Below are positions 3,211-27,746 of a stretch of 64,000 bases of DNA, one piece after another. Origin of the DNA: Elsinoe ampelina. Taxonomy: Eukaryota. The stretch covers positions 1,584,312 through 1,648,311 of the forward strand of contig ML992502.1 in the NCBI GenBank assembly GCA_010093995.1, in the 5' to 3' direction. The notes below the pieces were generated by a model. It was not told the origin of the DNA and searched no databases. It saw nothing but the letters and a program-made list of their open reading frames with translations. Numbering within the stretch: position 1 is the stretch's first letter; each line of letters starts with the position of its first letter. A program made the translations under genes and the position numbers.

Positions 3211-4129
3211 ATGTCTGGAGCAGGAGTGAGTCGAGAACAAGTAGCACAAACGATTGGTGCTGACAATTTTGTAGGACAGGGAAGCAGTCTTTCCCACCCG
3301 GCAGTCGCTGGGTGCGATGAAGGGAAAGCTGAAGGGCGCAAAGACTGGACACGACCTGCTGAAGCGAAAGAGTGAAGCTCTGACAAAGTCAGACCATGCG
3401 GTTCCTGCTAGGAATTTCTGAGCTGACCTGAACCGCAGGCGTTTCCGAGAGATCACACGGCGCATCGATGAAGCCAAGCGGAAGATGGGACGGGTCATGC
3501 AGATTGCGGCTTTTTCCCTTGCCGAGGTCACATACGCATTCGGTGGTATTGGTATGGGATATCAAATACAAGAGTCGGTACGATCGGCCAAGTTCCGGGT
3601 GCGAACGAAACAGGAGAACGTCTCTGGTGTCTTCCTTCCAGCCTTTGAGAGCTTCCAGACGGAAGGCAACAACGACTTTGGATTGACTGGCTTGGGTAAA
3701 GGTGGTCAGCAGGTGCAGAAGTGTCGCGAGACCTACGTGAGGGCTGTGGAGACACTGGTGGAATTGGCGAGCTTGCAGACAGCTTTTGTCATTCTGGATG
3801 AAGTCATCAAGGTTGTGAACCGGAGAGTCAACGCCATGTAGGTTCTGCAATCTGTGTGCACACACCCTTTACTAACAGGCTATAGCGAGCACGTCATCAT
3901 TCCCAGGACCGAGAACACAATCAAGTACATCAATTCGGAACTGGATGAGCTGGACAGAGAGGAGTTCTTCAGGCTGAAAAAGGTGTCGAACAAGAAAGAA
4001 AGGGATGCACAAGCAGAGGAAAAGGCAAGGCAGGAGAAAAAGAAGAAGAGTCAGGGTAGTGACAAGGAGAACGATGGCCCTTCGGAAGATATTCTGGGAG
4101 AGCAAGGAGACGAGGATGTGATTTTTTAG
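3211..4129 (+). CDS. VMA8: V-type ATPase subunit D
   Basis: Spliced MSGAG/[66 protein letters not shown]; 3 introns. Confidence 0.95.
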
Positions 4130-4235
4130 GGTAGCATGGTCGATTTTGATATCCGCTGCTGTGTGATAGCCACGAACGAGCACTTCCCATTTGAGCATTC
4201 GTTTCCAACGCCAGGTTGTTCCTCTTCCTAACCCA

Positions 4236-5118
4236 CTACTTGCGCTGGTAAGTGACCTTGAGTTTGGAATCTGCAAGCTGCATGCCTGAAGTTGCGTTCT
4301 TCGCGCTGATAGCACCCCCGAGGTCGTTGTAGTGCACAAAACCGAGACCAGGTCTGCCAGGCACCTCCAGGTATTCCTTGAAGTCTGGAAAACGACCGAA
4401 GATAAGTGTCATCATGTCGACCGTATAACTCTCGGGCACGCCAGAGACCATGAGGGTTGTGTTTGGCGATAGATGCTCGTCGGGAACCACTCCGACACGA
4501 GCCTGCTTCGGTCTCTCAGATTCCAGGTCGTCTGGCGCGGGTCTTTTCTTGCGCTCGGCCGCAGCGGCTGCTTGCTTCCTTTCTGGTAGACTTTAGCGTA
4601 TATCCAAATCCTATAGATTTAGGATTAATCATACCCTTCTCCGTCAGACGCTGTCGTTTGTGCTGCTCGAACTCTTCCTCGGTGCCTTCACGCTGGACAG
4701 TCGCATCGCTCTTGGTCTTCGCGAACTGGCAATTGATCTGTCTATCGAAGAGTTCGAAGCCGTTGATTTCGTCGATGGCATTTTGGGCTGATTCGGCACT
4801 GTCGAAGACCACAAAAGCCTGTCCTTTGCGCTTCAGGCTCTTCTTTGCGACTATGTCGATAATGTTGCCGTATTCGGCGAAGATTTCGCGAAGTGATTCG
4901 ACTAGGGTAGGGATCTTGACGTTTTCATCGAGGTTTCTGACCTGCTTGTTGTTAGCGCCGGCTTGTGGAACTGGTAATGGCAGCTTTACGTAGACACTAT
5001 ATCAAAAGAACAAATAACAAAGTTAGCCTTGTTCCTTCATCGCAGGTTCGTACTCGGTGCAATGTACGAACGTTGCGTTTGGAGCAATCTCTTCATCCTT
5101 GACCCCTCTTCCATCCAT
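4236..5118 (-). CDS. U1 snRNP protein A (U1A/U2B''/SNF family, two RRMs)
   Basis: Spliced MDGRGVKDEEIAPNA-T-VY-VRNLDENVKI...IDIVAKKSLKRKGQAFVVF..FAKTKSD; second RRM PNTTL..KVTYQRK. Introns 5071-4997, 4989-4942 and one near 4634-4583; 7-nt micro-exon 4996-4990. Confidence 0.9.
5041..5077 (-). promoter_or_regulatory. U1A-binding-site-like RNA hairpin overlapping the intron 1 donor of the U1A gene
   Basis: Transcript reads CGCA AC GUUCGUAC AUUGCACCGA GUACGAAC C UGCG: perfect 8-bp stem, C-G closing pair, 10-nt loop starting AUUGCAC. Confidence 0.8.
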
Positions 5119-5841
5119 ATTGACTGATTAAGTACGACTTTCGCGTATCTGGTGTTGCAGAGTGAAGATGGGTGGAGGCTGGTGGACCATGCAGCCAAGC
5201 TTAGTCAGCGCAGACGGGGGAATGCGGCTCAAGCCTCTCGACTCGCAAAAGTTTGGGTCCCTTTTCCGTAACTCGAAATGTGTGGCTTGTTGCAATAGCT
5301 ATTACGACACGAGGATTTGATTAAGAGATCTGGTAGTTACAGGCGTAGCTAATAACTACCAGAACTATCTGCAAGCCTGATTTAAGGCTTATAACTACAG
5401 TGTTGACGGAGTTATAGGTATAGCAAGTCAATACTCAGCCGAGATAGTGTTAGAGAGGACTCAAACTTTTGCGAGTGGAGAGGTCATCTCTGAGGTAAAC
5501 CTATAAACCGCTGTCTCTTTTACTTCTCACACAAGCTGATCAGATTCGATCGTGGACTCTTCCACTTCAACAATGCTCACGCTCCAGCGTCATCAGTGAA
5601 ATGACTTTGACCTGAAGTCGCACTATTTTCAGTTTCGGCAAACTGCAGGTGATCTCTGGATGGGTCCGAATTGAGTTCGCAGAGAGGGCTCGGCCTCGAG
5701 GAACCCCTCACTTGCACCGGTCCAGGCTCCTGGCTACGCTGATCCTACAGGTGTGACGAAGTGCTTGAAGCAGCGTTTCGAAACATGCATCGAGGTGCGT
5801 CTATGTGATACACGGTCAAAATACTGGTAAGTATCATTTCA

Positions 5842-7035
5842 ATGTCACAATACACCATTCCTTGCAAAGGCATTGTCGCCTACTCCGAGCACGAGTGGAA
5901 ATGGGAGGAGTTGTTGACCAGGGAGCCTGAGGCGGACGAGTTCCTGGTCGATTTGATCGCCACGGGAGTCTGTCACACGGATATCACGGGCTATGGTGGC
6001 ATCTATCCCCGCGTGCTAGGCCATGAAGGTGAATCACGCCCTCATGTTTCGCTGTGTTGGCAATTGACGAGTTTTCTAGGTGCTGGGCGTATCGTCCGCC
6101 TCGGAAGCAACAAGCTGAAATCAAAGTTCGCAGAAGGTGACCTGGTGATCCTATCAGCCGCCTCCTGCCAGGATTGCCATTACTGCAATACAGGACACCC
6201 TGCATACTGCCAGAACCATGCAGCAGTCACGCTCAGAGCGAACGAGCCGACCTTTGTCCTGGCCTCCGACAAGTCCAAGGTGATTGGTGGAGGCTACTTT
6301 GGTCAGTCCAGCTTCGCCAACCCAACCCCTGTCAAGGCCAGCTGCGCCGCCAACGTGACGAAGATGGTGCATGACGCCGAAGAGCTCAAGCTGTTTGCAC
6401 CACTCGGGTGCGGCATCATGACGGGTGCTGGAGCAATCACGCATGTCGGGAAGTGTCAGCCCGACGATGTGGTGGCAGTGGTAGGACTTGGAGGGGTGGG
6501 CCTTGCTGGTATCGCTGCCGCGAAGCATCTGGGCGTGAAGACCATCATCGCGGCAGACCTGTTGGAGTCACGGGTCGACTTAGCCTTGGACATGGGTGCC
6601 ACTCATGGTCTGGTGTCATCGGCAGAAGCTCTCAAGGCAGATGGACATGAAGACATGTCAATTGCGTTGCGCTCCAAATCACCTGGAGGTCTCGGCTGTA
6701 CGCATATTCTGGACACCAGTCCATCAGTCGCTGTTTTGAGCGCATGTCTTGAGGCTTTGCAGAACAACGGCACGGTGCTACAAGTTGGGGTCAAGCCAGT
6801 TGGTGCGAAGCTAGATTTGGATCTGTTGACGCATATGGTACATGGCAGACGCCTCGTAGGTGTGATCGAAGGAGATAGGGATCCTGCAGAAGCACTACCA
6901 GAACTCGTGCAATGGTGCAAAGATGGCACATTGCCAGTTGCCAAGCTGTTGAAGAATTATGCGGTCAAGGACTTTGACGCAGCACGTAAAGCTATGGAAA
7001 AGGGCGATGTGATCAAGGGTGTGCTCATTTGGTAG
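5842..7035 (+). CDS. Zn-dependent (MDR) alcohol dehydrogenase, aryl-alcohol dehydrogenase-like
   Basis: GVCHTD, LGHEG, CxxCxxCx7C, PLGCGIMTG, GLGGVG; 51-nt in-frame intron 6029-6079. Confidence 0.9.
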   Translation: MSQYTIPCKGIVAYSEHEWKWEELLTREPEADEFLVDLIATGVCHTDITGYGGIYPRVLGHEGESRPHVSLCWQLTSFLGAGRIVRLGSNKLKSKFAEGDLVILSAASCQDCHYCNTGHPAYCQNHAAVTLRANEPTFVLASDKSKVIGGGYFGQSSFANPTPVKASCAANVTKMVHDAEELKLFAPLGCGIMTGAGAITHVGKCQPDDVVAVVGLGGVGLAGIAAAKHLGVKTIIAADLLESRVDLALDMGATHGLVSSAEALKADGHEDMSIALRSKSPGGLGCTHILDTSPSVAVLSACLEALQNNGTVLQVGVKPVGAKLDLDLLTHMVHGRRLVGVIEGDRDPAEALPELVQWCKDGTLPVAKLLKNYAVKDFDAARKAMEKGDVIKGVLIW

Positions 7036-22380: not shown

Positions 22381-23903
22381 GATGAAGATGGTCGCTCGAG
22401 AAGTGAAAGTGAGGGGATGGCCAACTGGCCTGGAGCTGTGGTGGTAGCTCAAGCAGGTGGTTGACGGGCTCGTTGGTCAGTGTGGACAGTCGCGGTGGTG
22501 AGAGCAAATAATTGTGCCCGGACCGAGCTACTTGTTATGTCGCATCCAGGGAGTGCACCTTGCTCCTATCAGCCTCCTAGTTGACTGTCACGTTTCCATA
22601 CACTCGGGAAAGGCCGGGGTCGCTGCCTCTGTAATTCGCTCCAGTGCCCGATTCTTGTCAATTCAATAATGTACAGCGGCTTGTTTATGCTTGGGTGAGA
22701 TGAATTTAAGGGAGGTCCCAAGATCATCTAGAATACGGACGACGTTGAACCTTCTTGGCGGCTGCTTCTCGGTCTTTGCGCCTGCGATGCGGCTCAACAG
22801 GTCAAGTTTCAGGTCTACGCTAGCACGTAAAGAGGCATGACACGAGGCAAGGGACGGCAACGACACGTAGGGCACAAAGACGGAGCGAAATCGAGCCGGG
22901 ATATCTCCAATATTCATCATGCAAAGCTACATAAATTAACAATGAATGGTTCAAATGGTATCTGCACGAGCAATTAGCACCCGTCCAACATCAACATAAC
23001 AGAAGTGTTGTCGAAGAAGGCTCCTCAGAAAAGCCGATTTACTCCTGCCTCTGCCCCTACGCCCTTCCAGCAGGTCCAAGACGAACAAGCCGGAAGAGTG
23101 CTTGGTAACCAGTAGCGAGAGGCGAGACCGAAGTCAAGCCATTGCTGACTCCACAACCGATCCTCGCCGACAAGCAGCTACGGTATGGGAGCTTGGCCAG
23201 GGCTCAAGGCTCATTGAATGGATAGACTTCTGTCATCATAGAGAGCTGTGGAATGGTCCGATAGAAGGCATGTTCTTACCTTGTTGGAGATGTAGGTCGA
23301 TTTGAAACAAGACTATCTGTCGCTTCGTCAGTACAGAATCGTCATGAGTGGTCAAGCCAGACAGAGTAGTGGAATATGAGAGATCAGACAAGGTAAGCAT
23401 GGTATGTGCTGTCCACATTGGTATTCAGTAGCAGAACTGAAAAGAAAATACCGTCATCATGAAAGGTCGAGTATCAGAGTAGGAAAGAGCGAAAACGTAC
23501 CAAGTGATGAATGCAAAGGATATGCAGCGGTCTACCAAGGGTACCTATTTTATGTCAGCAACCGTCGTCGCCTGTGCTATTCTCTTGCTAAAGTGGTTCG
23601 TTTGTGCTGAGATCAGATGGTAGTGCATGTTGTTCGTGGATCATGAAATCACCGGAACTATTCGTGTTGTGTATTCCTCCTGTAAGACGACTATGTTGAG
23701 TCTTTCGTACGTACCTCGTAATCACACATGCCAGATATCGACACCGGCATGTTCATGTCGAAGAGAAGAAGCAGATCTCGTCCACAGCCAAAATTTCAAT
23801 CGATGCGGCTCTTCTCGCGTAAACCTTCCCATCTCGTTCTCACTTTTTCCGAGCTCCATCACCAATCCCACATCATCCCACCTTACCCTCTCTACACCCA
23901 ACC

Positions 23904-24853: not shown

Positions 24854-27746
24854 CTATGACTGAGTAAAGAGGTCATGAAGACTTGGTTCGACCGTCAGAA
24901 GTGCCTCAATATCGGCATCAAAGCCCTCCCCGACAGCCACACGAAGCATCGAGAAGGCCTTCTTGGCCTCTCGACGAGCTACAACGAACCGATCTTGGTT
25001 GTCAGCGTTCGCCATATTCTGCCAGCAGATGCACAAGCATTCCAAGATGTTGGCTTTGCACTCCGCCATCAGCGGCCACGCGTTGCGAATCAAGCTCTGA
25101 AGGGCGAGCAGGGCCAGAGCCATTATGTTGGGACTCGCAACGCTGAATGGATTGCAAAGTATCTCGGTCAGCATTGGAATGATAGACTTCAAATGCTTGA
25201 TGGATTCCAGACCAAGTATGTCTTGAAGAGCAGATAGATTGCGCAAGACAACAGAGATGATCAAAACGTGCTCCGGACAATGGTTGTAAACTGCTAGGAT
25301 GCCCTTGTGCATGATTGTATCAAGAAATTTTGTGCCTTTACCGTCTGGCTTGCCTTCTGCTCTTTGGAAGGCTGTTCTGAAGAGTGCAAAGTAGACCGGA
25401 AACACGTTGTTGAGCAGATCGACAGCTTCATGGTCTGCTGTCAGTGTTGGCAGGTAGCCAAAGCAAGGTCTCAATGCGTCAGCGAAGACATCAAACAATC
25501 CAGTCTTGGCAAGCAGACTCGAAGGTGTCCGTTCGAGTAGAATCGTGAGCAATTCGCACCCTTTGGCTTTGTAGGGGATTTGAAAGTCGTCAATCAAGCT
25601 GAGTATCGGCGGGACAAGAAGATGCCAGTGATGTTCCACCAATCGATCGTCCAGTTGCTGCACTGTCCACGTCAGGATCCCGAGGACTTGATGCTCCTTT
25701 CGCTTCCAAGGCGTCGCCGCTTCTTCATCGAAGCCGATGTCGATCGGTGCAGCTGGTCTGTTTCGAGTGTCTTTACGACCTTGATCCGTTACTCCTTGAG
25801 GTCGATTCTGTGAGAACAAAGGGCGAATCGTCAGCAAGAGAAAATGCTTGACGAGGTCGGCCGCAAGCTCACCGTGAATTTTGCTGTTCTTGACTTGTTC
25901 TACAGCCTCATCAATGCTTTTGTTATCTGGGTTGCGAAGTTGCCATGCCATGATCACATCCAGAGCATCCTTCATCCATGGACCAGGATTGATCCCAATG
26001 GCCTTCGCAAGCTGTTTGCCATCCATGATCGGGCGGAAAGCGTAGGCATCTTCGATTGCAAAGTCGGAAATCTGCTGGAGGAACTTCTGGTACGTTGTTA
26101 TGAAGACTGGAAAGTATCAGCATTGTCTAATCCCAGTGTAGACGCAACATACCCTCGGCCTGGTCAGGCTCTTCTGCGATATCACATAGTAATGAGAACA
26201 AAGTCTGTAGTTTCCAAGTGGGACCCCATCTGCGAATAGACATGCCCAAAGTCTCACGAAGGTCGACATCTTCCAGACGTGGTCGCTTTGGGCGGTCTTG
26301 AAAGGACCTGGCTAAGCTACCGATTTCCTGAACGTTTTTGACTGAAGCAGTGACGATGTCGCATATCTTATTGGTGGCTTTGAAGCCCTCTCTTGCGATG
26401 ACTGTAGCCATGGGAGGAGGTTGCTTCTTTCCTGGTGGAGCCTGTGTCTGAGGTGCACTCCTGTAAGGAATCAGGCATGCGAGAACCCAGGCAGCATATC
26501 TGTCCTCTACATCGAATCCGAAGAGGTCCATAAGGTCCTTCTGGTTTGCTGAGAGCGATTGCATGTTGTGCAATACTTCAGTCCACGACTCCACCTCTGG
26601 ATCGTAGGATGGCGCCCCTGGCGTAGGGTCGCTGAAGACAGTCTTGTAAAGTCCAGCCTCTCTGAGCAGGGTTAGAGCTCTGAAGGGGTCCGGGCCTCTT
26701 AGCATCTTCTCCAGTTCCACACCGACGCGCTCCCTGCTGATCTTCACTTTCAGTGCGGCTTTGATATCCTCATTCGTCATGCTCTGAGCAGCCTCGCGAT
26801 CGATATCATAGCCAAGGCGACTAGCAAACCTGATTAGTCTTAGCACTCTGAGCGGATCATCCTTGAATGTTTGGTAAGGCTCAAGCGGAGTGCGGATGAT
26901 CCGGGCGGCCATGTCATCAAAGCCACGGTCGGTCAGATCTTCAATCTTGCGAGTGTTCAAATTGTAGAACATCGCGTTGATGGTAGCGTCTCGTCGTAAA
27001 GCATCTTCCTCGGGAGTACCAAACTCGATCTGAGGGTTCCGACTATCGTCTGTATACGTTTCCTTCCGAAGGTTGACCAGATCGATGTCCAGCCCAAGAA
27101 TGCGTGTCGTGATGGTTTCCAAATGCTTTGATTTCTCGGGGTTAGCTTCGATCTTGTGAAGACCACCCACGAGCTTGCTCTTGCCGTTGACGCCAGCTTT
27201 GTTGGATTGGGAGTCGGTCTTTGCCACACCGTCAAGACCGTACTTCTCAGCATTGCCGGGACGTTCCAAGTAGTCCTTCATCTGGAGCCCGAACTGCTCT
27301 CCGGTCATGTTGTTAATCGCGACATCAATATCATGGCTGTCGACTCCGAGAAGCTTGTCGCGGACCCATCCTCCGGTGAAACGAAGCACGGTCTGCTCGT
27401 TCGCTAGCTGTGCGGGAAGTGTCACCTGACTATCATGCTTGACAGGAGAAGTCCGTATGAATTCGGCGACGTCCAGAAGCAATGTCCTGAGTGTTTCTTC
27501 CACTTCAGTCAGTTGTAGCTCTAGCTGCCGGAAATTGTTTGTCCGATTGGAGGCCGATCCTGCCGCCATTGTTCGCCGCGTAATCTGCAAGGACTTTTGT
27601 GAGGACTCAGCCGGTAGTCTTGTAAGCTTCGCGTGATGACAGATTGTAGATGCCGAGCTCACGCATCGCACGGTTGTATGAATTGATGATCTGAATCGAG
27701 TCCTTTTCACCAGCGCCCAGGTTACGTTGCAGCGTGGAATTCTCAT
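24854..27746 (-). CDS. CCA1: CCA tRNA nucleotidyltransferase fused in frame to a Tti2-like HEAT domain
   Basis: GGWVRDKLLG, DIDVA, EDALRRDATIN, DDPLRVLRLIRF, ISRERV; 46-nt intron 26152-26107; the CCA C-terminus (PGPWMKDALDVIMAWQLRNP) runs without a stop into PWK..HWHLLVPPILSLIDD..KAKGCELL. In-frame ATGs at 27746 and 27569. Confidence 0.9.

Follow-up and report, generated by a model that had tools for sequence, protein, structure and literature searches.

How do eukaryotes other than vertebrates keep the protein U1A in balance with U1 small nuclear RNA (snRNA)? The question is raised by a U1A-family gene of the fungus Elsinoe ampelina, which lies on the minus strand of a 64,000-nucleotide (nt) stretch of contig ML992502.1 (assembly GCA_010093995.1, positions 1,584,312 to 1,648,311; hereafter the window), and whose first intron begins with a hairpin resembling stem-loop II of U1 snRNA. 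The first RNA recognition motif (RRM1) of U1A recognizes AUUGCAC atop U1 stem-loop II, as described in passages of PMC6325900 and PMC9977717. In vertebrates, the U1A (SNRPA) message carries in its 3' untranslated region (3' UTR) a mimic of that site, the polyadenylation inhibition element (PIE), which is bound by surplus U1A and lowers U1A's own expression (parts of PMC9977717 and PMC6884704). The Elsinoe hairpin offers a concrete mechanism by which a fungus could achieve the same balance. With a probability of roughly 70 %, it serves a negative feedback in which free U1A controls the splicing of its own pre-mRNA, a reading in which we infer that U1A binds, in which direction it acts and what becomes of the retained transcript. 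Splicing autoregulation of this kind was what the initial annotation of the locus had proposed, and both the conservation and covariation of the hairpin in relatives and the retention of intron 1 in RNA argue in its favour.

On the minus strand, exon 1 ends in ...AAC GCA AC and is followed directly by the hairpin (Table 1). As described in the initial annotation, the stem consists of eight perfect Watson–Crick pairs, its 5' arm is the splice donor itself, the loop-closing pair is C-G, and the 10-nt loop begins with the heptamer AUUGCAC (5063-5057). The proposed extension by CGCA/UGCG is likewise present; it adds four pairs beyond a small internal loop and forms part of the minimum-free-energy fold of the 37 nt from 5041 to 5077 (-14.1 kcal/mol; z -3.79, with 0 of 200 shuffles as good). 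When the fold is computed in a 61-nt context, z is -2.77 and 2 of 200 shuffles are as good; the protein-free fold also pairs three loop bases (UUG/CGA). Similar lower helices, CGC/GCG or GC(A)/UGC, are predicted by folding in three related loci (L063, L029 and L044), and GCG stands 1-3 nt past the stem in most loci that share the stem sequence of the window (type 1, below). The heptamer by itself is found in the window at the rate of chance, ATTGCAC occurring 8 times against 8.5 expected, so that any significance must come from the combination of features and from comparison with relatives.

Relatives were represented by the best 80 (L001-L080) of 263 found in a metagenome contig collection, together with an alignment (A1) of 18 named orthologues; the search peptide TVYV[RK]NL[ED]E is biased towards genes or transcripts in which no intron interrupts that stretch, while KGQAF[VI]V[FY] is neutral. 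On the coding strand, the stretch 120-330 nt upstream of the KGQAF codon holds 41 copies of ATTGCAC, spread over 39 of the 80 loci; outside that stretch, these loci have 6 copies on the plus and 22 on the minus strand in 317 kb, a rate that predicts 0.74. In 35 of the 39, the heptamer is the loop of a hairpin with a stem of 5-11 base pairs (bp). Grouping the 80 loci at 97 % identity leaves 66 groups, of which 30 have the hairpin and 36 lack it. Three unrelated stem sequences present the same fold and the same loop. Type 1, the form in the window (GUUCGUAC/GUACGAAC), is found in 13 loci whose proteins are closest to those of Dothideomycetes; type 2 (GUACGUGUC/GACACGUAC, with the variants GUAUGUGUC/GACACAUAC and GUGCGUGUC) is found in 19 loci, some of them unplaced and the others most similar to Leotiomycetes (Rhynchosporium) or Sordariomycetes (best matches Thermothielavioides, Podospora and Xylaria); and type 3 (ACGGUCGC/GCGACCGU) is found in 3 loci that are only ~50 % identical to any named protein. 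These class labels derive from best blastp hits, with rough support from a weakly resolved quick tree of RRM1 peptides (95 columns; 43 of 80 forks open; L048, L061 and L064 dropped as having no anchor motif; 14 redundant loci left out; the L018 peptide mis-extracted).

The initial annotation had looked to orthologues for conservation of the loop and covariation of the stem, and both were found there. An alignment (A2) of 28 distinct 35-nt hairpins, from the window and 27 loci (Dothideomycetes-, Leotiomycetes- and Sordariomycetes-like, plus one unplaced group), pairs in 94.0 % of its stem cells versus 57.6 % with shuffled partners, a level reached by 0 of 500 shuffles. In eight of nine stem pairs both partners have changed, the covariation score reaches 0.855 where shuffles give 0.225 (0/500), and sliding the 3' strand by 1-3 columns yields pairing of at most 49.8 %. 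Given the alignment only, RNAalifold returns the same helix, with compensatory changes in 7 of 8 pairs. AUUGCAC is present in all 28 distinct hairpins (the rows having been selected for it), as is the loop-closing C-G pair, and the loop measures 10 nt in 25 and 11 nt in 3 of them (33 and 3 among the 36 rows formed by 35 loci and the window). The three bases after the heptamer take nine forms, including UCC, AUC, UUC, CCC, ACC, AUU and CGA. In an alignment of the whole intron, whose length ranges from 52 to 101 nt, conservation is limited to the donor, CAUUGCAC, the branch motif and the terminal AG. A covariance model built from A2 and run over the window and 45 loci without the full hairpin (241,198 bases, both strands) gave the window site 33.3 bits (E 5e-6), with the runner-up at 19.4 bits, a gap which indicates that the element is specific and truly absent from those 45 loci rather than diverged.

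Judged from these alignments, the conservation of the hairpin across relatives is not a matter of chance. Coincidental or neutral resemblance, or a DNA element such as a palindromic transcription-factor site, would suit the chance rate of ATTGCAC in the window, and the heptamers upstream of the start codon in L017, L020 and L026 (see below), which fold unstably (z -0.17), could be DNA sites. Such an origin is nonetheless scarcely credible, given that the 41 occurrences (versus 0.74) all lie on the sense strand within the target stretch, that the compensatory stem changes, which include G-U pairs, make sense only in RNA, and that the position on a splice signal is conserved.

What reads the loop is suggested by its likeness to U1 and by the protein that the gene encodes. 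A permissive Rfam scan of 4900-5200 gave three weak matches, of which only U1 (RF00003) falls on the hairpin; positions 57-83 of the model (stem-loop II, consensus CAUUGCACUucG) align weakly to 5071-5046, with 9.4 bits and an E value of 4.1. The match is not significant alone, and what it shows is that the U1 stem-loop II consensus gcuccccCAUUGCACUucGgagggugc shares its loop and closure with the hairpin. At gathering scores, the one family that Rfam assigned in the window was snR61; neither U1 nor any family covering the hairpin was reported. The loop is of the stem-loop II type, being 10 nt long with three free 3' spacer bases; in the U1A site, the three 3' loop bases are tolerated as a spacer. 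The pattern of an invariant loop and closure combined with free 3' bases thus matches the known recognition of stem-loop II by U1A RRM1. The gene itself, with four exons, belongs to the U1A/U2B''/SNF family. Its product has the two RRMs of that family, an RRM_1 domain being found in both halves (exons 3 and 4), and RRM1 is nearest to U1A/U2B''; the best solved relatives are human U1A chains (E 2.8e-21), with U2B'' next (E 4.7e-18). The fungal RRM1 keeps SLK-x-x-GQAF and AKT-x-SD and, relative to human U1A, retains Ser48, Leu49, Lys50, Gly53, Gln54, Phe56, Lys88, Thr89, Ser91 and Asp92. Among the RNA-contact residues of U1A that are named in a part of PMC9977717, Phe56, Asp92, Ser48, Leu49 and Lys22 are conserved.

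A reader other than U1A would have to come from the same family, either a U2B''/Msl1-type protein or an SNF-like protein of dual specificity, in which case the hairpin would mediate cross-regulation rather than autoregulation. U1A, U2B'' and SNF share a fold and bind similar loops, and Drosophila SNF binds both the U1 and the U2 hairpin, according to a passage of PMC5992148. Such a reader is nevertheless improbable here, because all 28 loops are of the U1 type and the element sits in the two-RRM, U1A-type gene itself. The U2 type of loop is AUUGCAG, which none of the 28 has.

The relation of the hairpin to the splice signals of intron 1 is equally regular. In all loci that have this intron, its position and phase are constant, after the AC of a Thr codon that precedes (V/I)Y(V/I) of the RNP2 motif. 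In Elsinoe, exon 3 is 100 % identical to P0003, a 235-residue protein named by its source as Elsinoe ampelina, and the N-terminus of P0003, NAT-VY-VRNL (MDGRGVKDEEIAPNAT-VY-VRNLDE...), requires a donor at 5071 and thereby fixes the gene model; the position of the donor rests on P0003 and the related loci, and the species' own mRNA junction is not among the RNA contigs described below. The structure of the gene is accordingly refined to an intron 1 of 75 nt, a 7-nt micro-exon and then intron 2. A script placed the donor in 34 of the 36 rows, with its GT inside the 5' arm in 31 of the 34 and at exactly the first stem base in 22; the donors within the arm read GUUCGU (14), GUACGU (9), GUAUGU (4) or GUGCGU (4). 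In the other three, which form type 3, the donor reads GUAGGA or GUAGGC and a branch-like CUGAC begins 1-2 nt past the stem, so that the hairpin, by its sequence context, abuts the branch site rather than the donor. The structure thus includes or adjoins a splice signal in all 34 placed rows, a feature of the type of RPL30, discussed below. Use of the donor is seen in one relative. Contig L022 is ~98 % identical to genomic L044 and L047 but is without four introns, which marks it as mRNA-like; it joins ...GCUAC to GGUUUAC..., excising GUAUGUGUC-AUUGCACUCC-GACACAUAC...CAG, and the first G of the stem is therefore the donor used in vivo in that relative. The idea that the hairpin hides the donor of intron 1 is supported for the 31 rows with the donor in the 5' arm, strengthened by the used donor of L022, and does not extend to the three loci in which the hairpin lies at the branch site.

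RNA evidence comes from assembled contigs. Nine coded runs hold ~0.68-0.69 of the sampled words of 4200-5250, none of them recorded as RNA; contigs of X1, X2, X9 and X11, which come from three studies, were mapped to the locus, with one contig per run. All four contigs skip 4583-4634 and 4942-4989, with GT..AG on the minus strand, and, being without introns 2 and 3, are treated as derived from spliced RNA. All four are also continuous, with no joint, from 4988/4990 through intron 1 to 5100-5124. In 4 of 4 Elsinoe runs, intron 1 is therefore the one intron left in the assembled transcript, and the retention for which the initial annotation had looked to RNA is borne out, by contigs that carry no proportions. 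Reading through intron 1 gives ...NATFVHCTEYEPAMKEQG and then a TAA (5025-5023) as the 17th codon from the split Thr codon, in keeping with the earlier estimate of an in-frame UAA about 16 codons in, and no in-frame ATG able to give RRM1 follows that stop. Of the 32 rows that could be evaluated, 29 would meet a stop within the intron when it is retained. A productive, spliced form must exist in Elsinoe; that the assembler kept the other path suggests that the retained form is abundant.

Retention in RNA contigs needs no protein, and the stem is stable alone (-14 to -16 kcal/mol, z -2.7 to -4.4) and covers a weak donor, GUUCGU. These facts would also fit a hairpin that works without U1A, as a fixed attenuator of donor recognition or as a switch responding to temperature or transcription rate, with the loop being kept for some other reason. 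That account is unlikely, however, as it leaves unexplained why a 7-nt loop and a C-G closure are invariant while all other stem pairs change, why loop variation is restricted to three 3' bases, and why the element resides in the very gene whose product is the one protein known to read this loop. The contigs also bear on what binding would bring about. A retained form that turns up as the assembled one in all four runs is more easily reconciled with a stable, detained pool than with a nonsense transcript that is rapidly broken down, and the hairpin lies off the donor in three loci; U1A might hence bind with a different outcome, be it a releasable nuclear reserve, aid to the weak donor or co-transcriptional loading of new U1A. 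We regard these outcomes, too, as doubtful. Within the U1 small nuclear ribonucleoprotein (snRNP), RRM1 of U1A is occupied by stem-loop II, which makes recruitment of the snRNP through the hairpin unlikely; a stem over the donor is more readily inhibitory; and the vertebrate precedent is one of repression.

The negative feedback favoured here would run as follows. U1A outside the U1 snRNP would bind the hairpin via RRM1 and lock it, and the locked stem would keep the weak donor from pairing with the 5' end of U1 snRNA. Introns 2 and 3 would still be spliced out but intron 1 would not, and with an in-frame UAA 17 codons further on, the transcript could not make RRM1; it would either be held in the nucleus or be broken down. 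At low levels of U1A, the hairpin would open, intron 1 would be spliced and U1A would be made, and the feedback would in this way match U1A to U1 snRNA. On the same reading, U1 of the hairpin-bearing fungi would have a C-G-closed stem-loop II with the loop AUUGCACNNN. It further seems rather probable that the circuit is an old one, present in at least three classes of filamentous ascomycetes, in which free U1A would sense its excess over U1 snRNA through a stem-loop II mimic on a splice signal of intron 1 (the donor in most lineages and the branch site in one), giving an unproductive, intron-retaining transcript, and that it arose independently of the vertebrate 3' UTR element. If so, the same protein would have evolved self-repression twice, with the same mimicry acting on different RNA-processing steps; a core snRNP protein would control a splice site by direct occlusion, of which there are few examples; and the movement of the element within the intron, along with its repeated loss together with the intron, would trace the birth and death of such circuits.

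Several observations weigh against this interpretation. Conservation across Pezizomycotina is partial; 30 of the 66 non-redundant loci carry the hairpin, and its absence from the other 36, which include Eurotiales-, Chaetothyriales- and Lecanoromycetes-like ones, means that it is dispensable in many fungi. In Saccharomyces cerevisiae, as stated in a part of PMC6325900, Mud1 does not recognize AUUGCAC, U1 being without this loop there and Mud1 binding elsewhere, which limits the argument to fungi with a conventional U1; that the hairpin loop equals the stem-loop II loop of this fungus's own U1 is assumed. The donor of type 3 (L061, L062 and L064) lies 24-25 nt upstream of the stem, and occlusion of the donor is thus not a universal mode. 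Rows of A2 were selected for ATTGCAC plus a stem, with the short-stem sites of L017, L020, L026 and L042 and the second sites of L079 and L080 excluded, and the independent stem replacements amount to ~3-5 events, not 28. The RNA contigs give presence only, not proportions, and drop minor forms; the form with intron 1 spliced is not seen among the contigs of the 4 runs from this species; and even without U1A, retention could be caused by the weak donor, by the 7-nt micro-exon or by the hairpin on its own. Finally, the fungal RRM1 differs from U1A at the contact residues Arg52 (Lys), Ser46 (Lys) and Lys20 (Asn).

U1A autoregulation through the 3' UTR is a textbook case that, to our knowledge, is known only from vertebrates, and the fungal element would be a second, apparently independent solution to the balance between U1A and U1. 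It shares with the PIE the protein, the mimicry of U1 stem-loop II and the logic of feedback. The PIE, however, lies in the 3' UTR at a set distance from the poly(A) signal, has two internal-loop sites for two U1A molecules and inhibits poly(A) polymerase, whereas the fungal element is a single true hairpin in intron 1, which occupies the 5' splice site or adjoins the branch site and would be expected to act on splicing. Between the stop codon and position 3900, the minus strand of the window is free of ATTGCAC, and in 79 of the 80 loci there is none downstream of KGQAF, the lone exception being 2.4 kb downstream. Nor is there an architecture of two AUUG(C/U)AC boxes, as the window and most loci have a single site, and a second ATTGCAC is confined to L079 and L080 (in intron 2). 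With stem-loop II of U1 snRNA, the element has in common a 10-nt loop starting with AUUGCAC, a C-G closure and a regular stem; it differs in being part of a pre-mRNA, in having a stem sequence that is set by the splice donor, and in that the rest of U1 is absent. A parallel in mechanism is RPL30 (L32) of S. cerevisiae, whose protein binds a mimic spanning the 5' splice site of its own pre-mRNA and blocks spliceosome assembly, leaving the transcript unspliced. As in RPL30 and similar ribosomal-protein genes, an RNA-binding protein's target mimic here includes its own 5' splice site; the RPL30 mimic is that of an rRNA kink-turn, whereas the putative regulator here is a spliceosomal snRNP protein and the mimic is that of an snRNA. 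The initial annotation knew of no description of such a mechanism in fungi, and we found none of a fungal U1A intron hairpin in the open literature searched, with subscription journals and supplements outside its scope. Term look-ups in PMC9977717, PMC6884704, PMC6325900 and PMC7049704 did not find one, the matches to U1A in PMC7049704 being to 'u1AUG', and U1A is mentioned nowhere (0 occurrences) in PMC5640933 and PMC8216456, which survey conserved RNA structures of fungi. In practical terms, the 29-nt hairpin could serve as a protein-responsive splicing switch.

The hairpin is absent from the loci closest to Aspergillus, Penicillium or Emmonsia (L009, L015, L051, L052, L055 and L067), from those closest to Exophiala or Capronia (L010-L013, L021 and L023-L025), from those closest to lichen-forming Lecanoromycetes (L003, L004, L006-L008, L040 and L041), and from a distant group (L069, L070, L075, L077 and L078). 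Some of the hairpin-less contigs are transcript-like and uninformative on introns, as pairs of spliced and genomic records show for L009, L014 and L022, while in long genomic contigs, L011-L013 among them, no intron interrupts the sequence that encodes PVTTVYAKNLEE. The metagenome collection thus holds spliced records (L022 versus L044/L047, L009 versus L067 and L014 versus L050); an all-against-all search for pairs of spliced and unspliced contigs returned only L022 with L044/L047, L009 with L067 and L069 with L075, which leaves Elsinoe as the one species with evidence on retention. Since the records of the collection are partly transcript-derived, an intronless gene in a short contig is not evidence of intron loss.

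The element also appears to explain wrong gene models in public databases. Odd N-termini are seen in U1A orthologues of Myriangium duriaei (P0020), Meristemomyces frigidus (P0034), Zalaria obscura (P0005), Patellaria atrata (P0088) and Aureobasidium subglaciale (P0008), in the form of an inserted FVHCTS or of TFV or TFVH instead of TVYV, and they look like the result of splice sites mis-called owing to the hairpin and the micro-exon. NATFVHCTS in P0020 and SATFVHCTS in P0034 are the translation of ACG TTC GTA CAT TGC AC-, from which it follows that these two gene models read through the hairpin, and we infer from these peptides that M. duriaei and M. frigidus carry the element.

A number of lesser sites were noted and not counted as the element. 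In the Chaetothyriales-like L017 (44-61), L020 (2321-2336) and L026 (1962-1977), (T)TGC-ATTGCACA(A/T)C-GCA(A) stands 85-95 nt upstream of the ATG with stems that reach just 3-4 bp; L016, L019 and L045 have ATCGCAC at the orthologous position. These upstream sites may be remnants, weak sites or DNA elements. In L042, the donor of intron 1 still reads GTTCGTAC but has no 3' arm to pair with, and the ATTGCAC in intron 2 (778-791), beside a branch-like GCTGAC, has a 3-bp stem. The second ATTGCAC of L079 and L080, 11 nt into intron 2, likewise has stems of 3 bp. In the window, the 19.4-bit match of the covariance model (25043-25077, plus strand; GGC-UUUGCACUCC-GCC) has the loop UUUGCAC and two mismatched stem pairs, belongs to no Rfam family and is probably due to chance. 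L030 (~2442-2476) has the 5' arm GCACGUGUC where relatives have GUACGUGUC, implying either a GC-AG intron or a disabled donor.

The features of the gene are collected in Table 1. A micro-exon architecture like that of the window is also found in L068, L079, L080, L042 and L050. Comparison of L014 with L050, from a lineage without the hairpin, reveals a micro-exon AGTCTAC spliced on both sides, which shows that the 7-nt micro-exon is real. An alternative in-frame donor, GUACGA at 5053, would add FVHCTD to the protein; it has no contig joint, and orthologues are without the insertion save P0020 and P0034.

Table 1. Features of the U1A gene and of its intron 1 hairpin, in window coordinates
Feature	Position	Strand	Basis
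Exon 1; ATG at 5118-5116, ends with AC of the split Thr codon	5072..5118	-	sequence; P0003 N-terminus MDGRGVKDEEIAPNAT; RNA contigs reach 5100-5124
Lower helix, exon-side strand CGCA (4 bp)	5074..5077	-	folds
Intron 1, 75 nt, GUUCGU...AUAG, retained in assembled transcripts	4997..5071	-	P0003, RNA contigs
Hairpin 5' arm GTTCGTAC (RNA GUUCGUAC), the intron 1 5' splice site GUUCGU	5064..5071	-	sequence, folds; donor from annotated protein and phase-2 position in relatives
Hairpin loop, 10 nt, ATTGCACCGA (RNA AUUGCACCGA), with AUUGCAC as in U1 snRNA stem-loop II	5054..5063	-	sequence, Rfam U1 alignment
Hairpin 3' arm GTACGAAC (RNA GUACGAAC), its G pairing with C at 5064 to close the loop	5046..5053	-	sequence, folds, covariation, RNAalifold
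Lower helix, intron-side strand UGCG	5041..5044	-	folds
Branch-like CUAAC, holding the in-frame UAA (5025-5023)	5022..5026	-	sequence, reading frame listed as 5023..5127
Micro-exon, 7 nt, UGUCUAC (TGTCTAC); completes Thr, then Val-Tyr of RNP2	4990..4996	-	P0003; 3' junction from RNA contigs
Intron 2, 48 nt, GUAAAG...CUAAC...CAG, spliced	4942..4989	-	contig joint in 4/4 runs
Exon 3, encodes RRM1 of U1A	4635..4941	-	protein comparisons
Intron 3, 52 nt, spliced	4583..4634	-	contig joint in 4/4 runs
Exon 4, linker and RRM2, stop UAG at 4238-4236	4236..4582	-	domain search

The neighbours of the gene are on the plus strand. A gene for V-type ATPase subunit D (3422-4129), in which the Pfam domain ATP-synt_D is found in two frames and which therefore contains an intron, is convergent with the U1A gene, facing its 3' end, and a zinc-type alcohol dehydrogenase gene (5809-7035) lies upstream of it on the opposite strand. 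Farther away, on the minus strand, 23381-23465 encodes a box C/D small nucleolar RNA of the snR61/Z1/Z11 family (RF00476), with 58.9 bits, above the gathering score.

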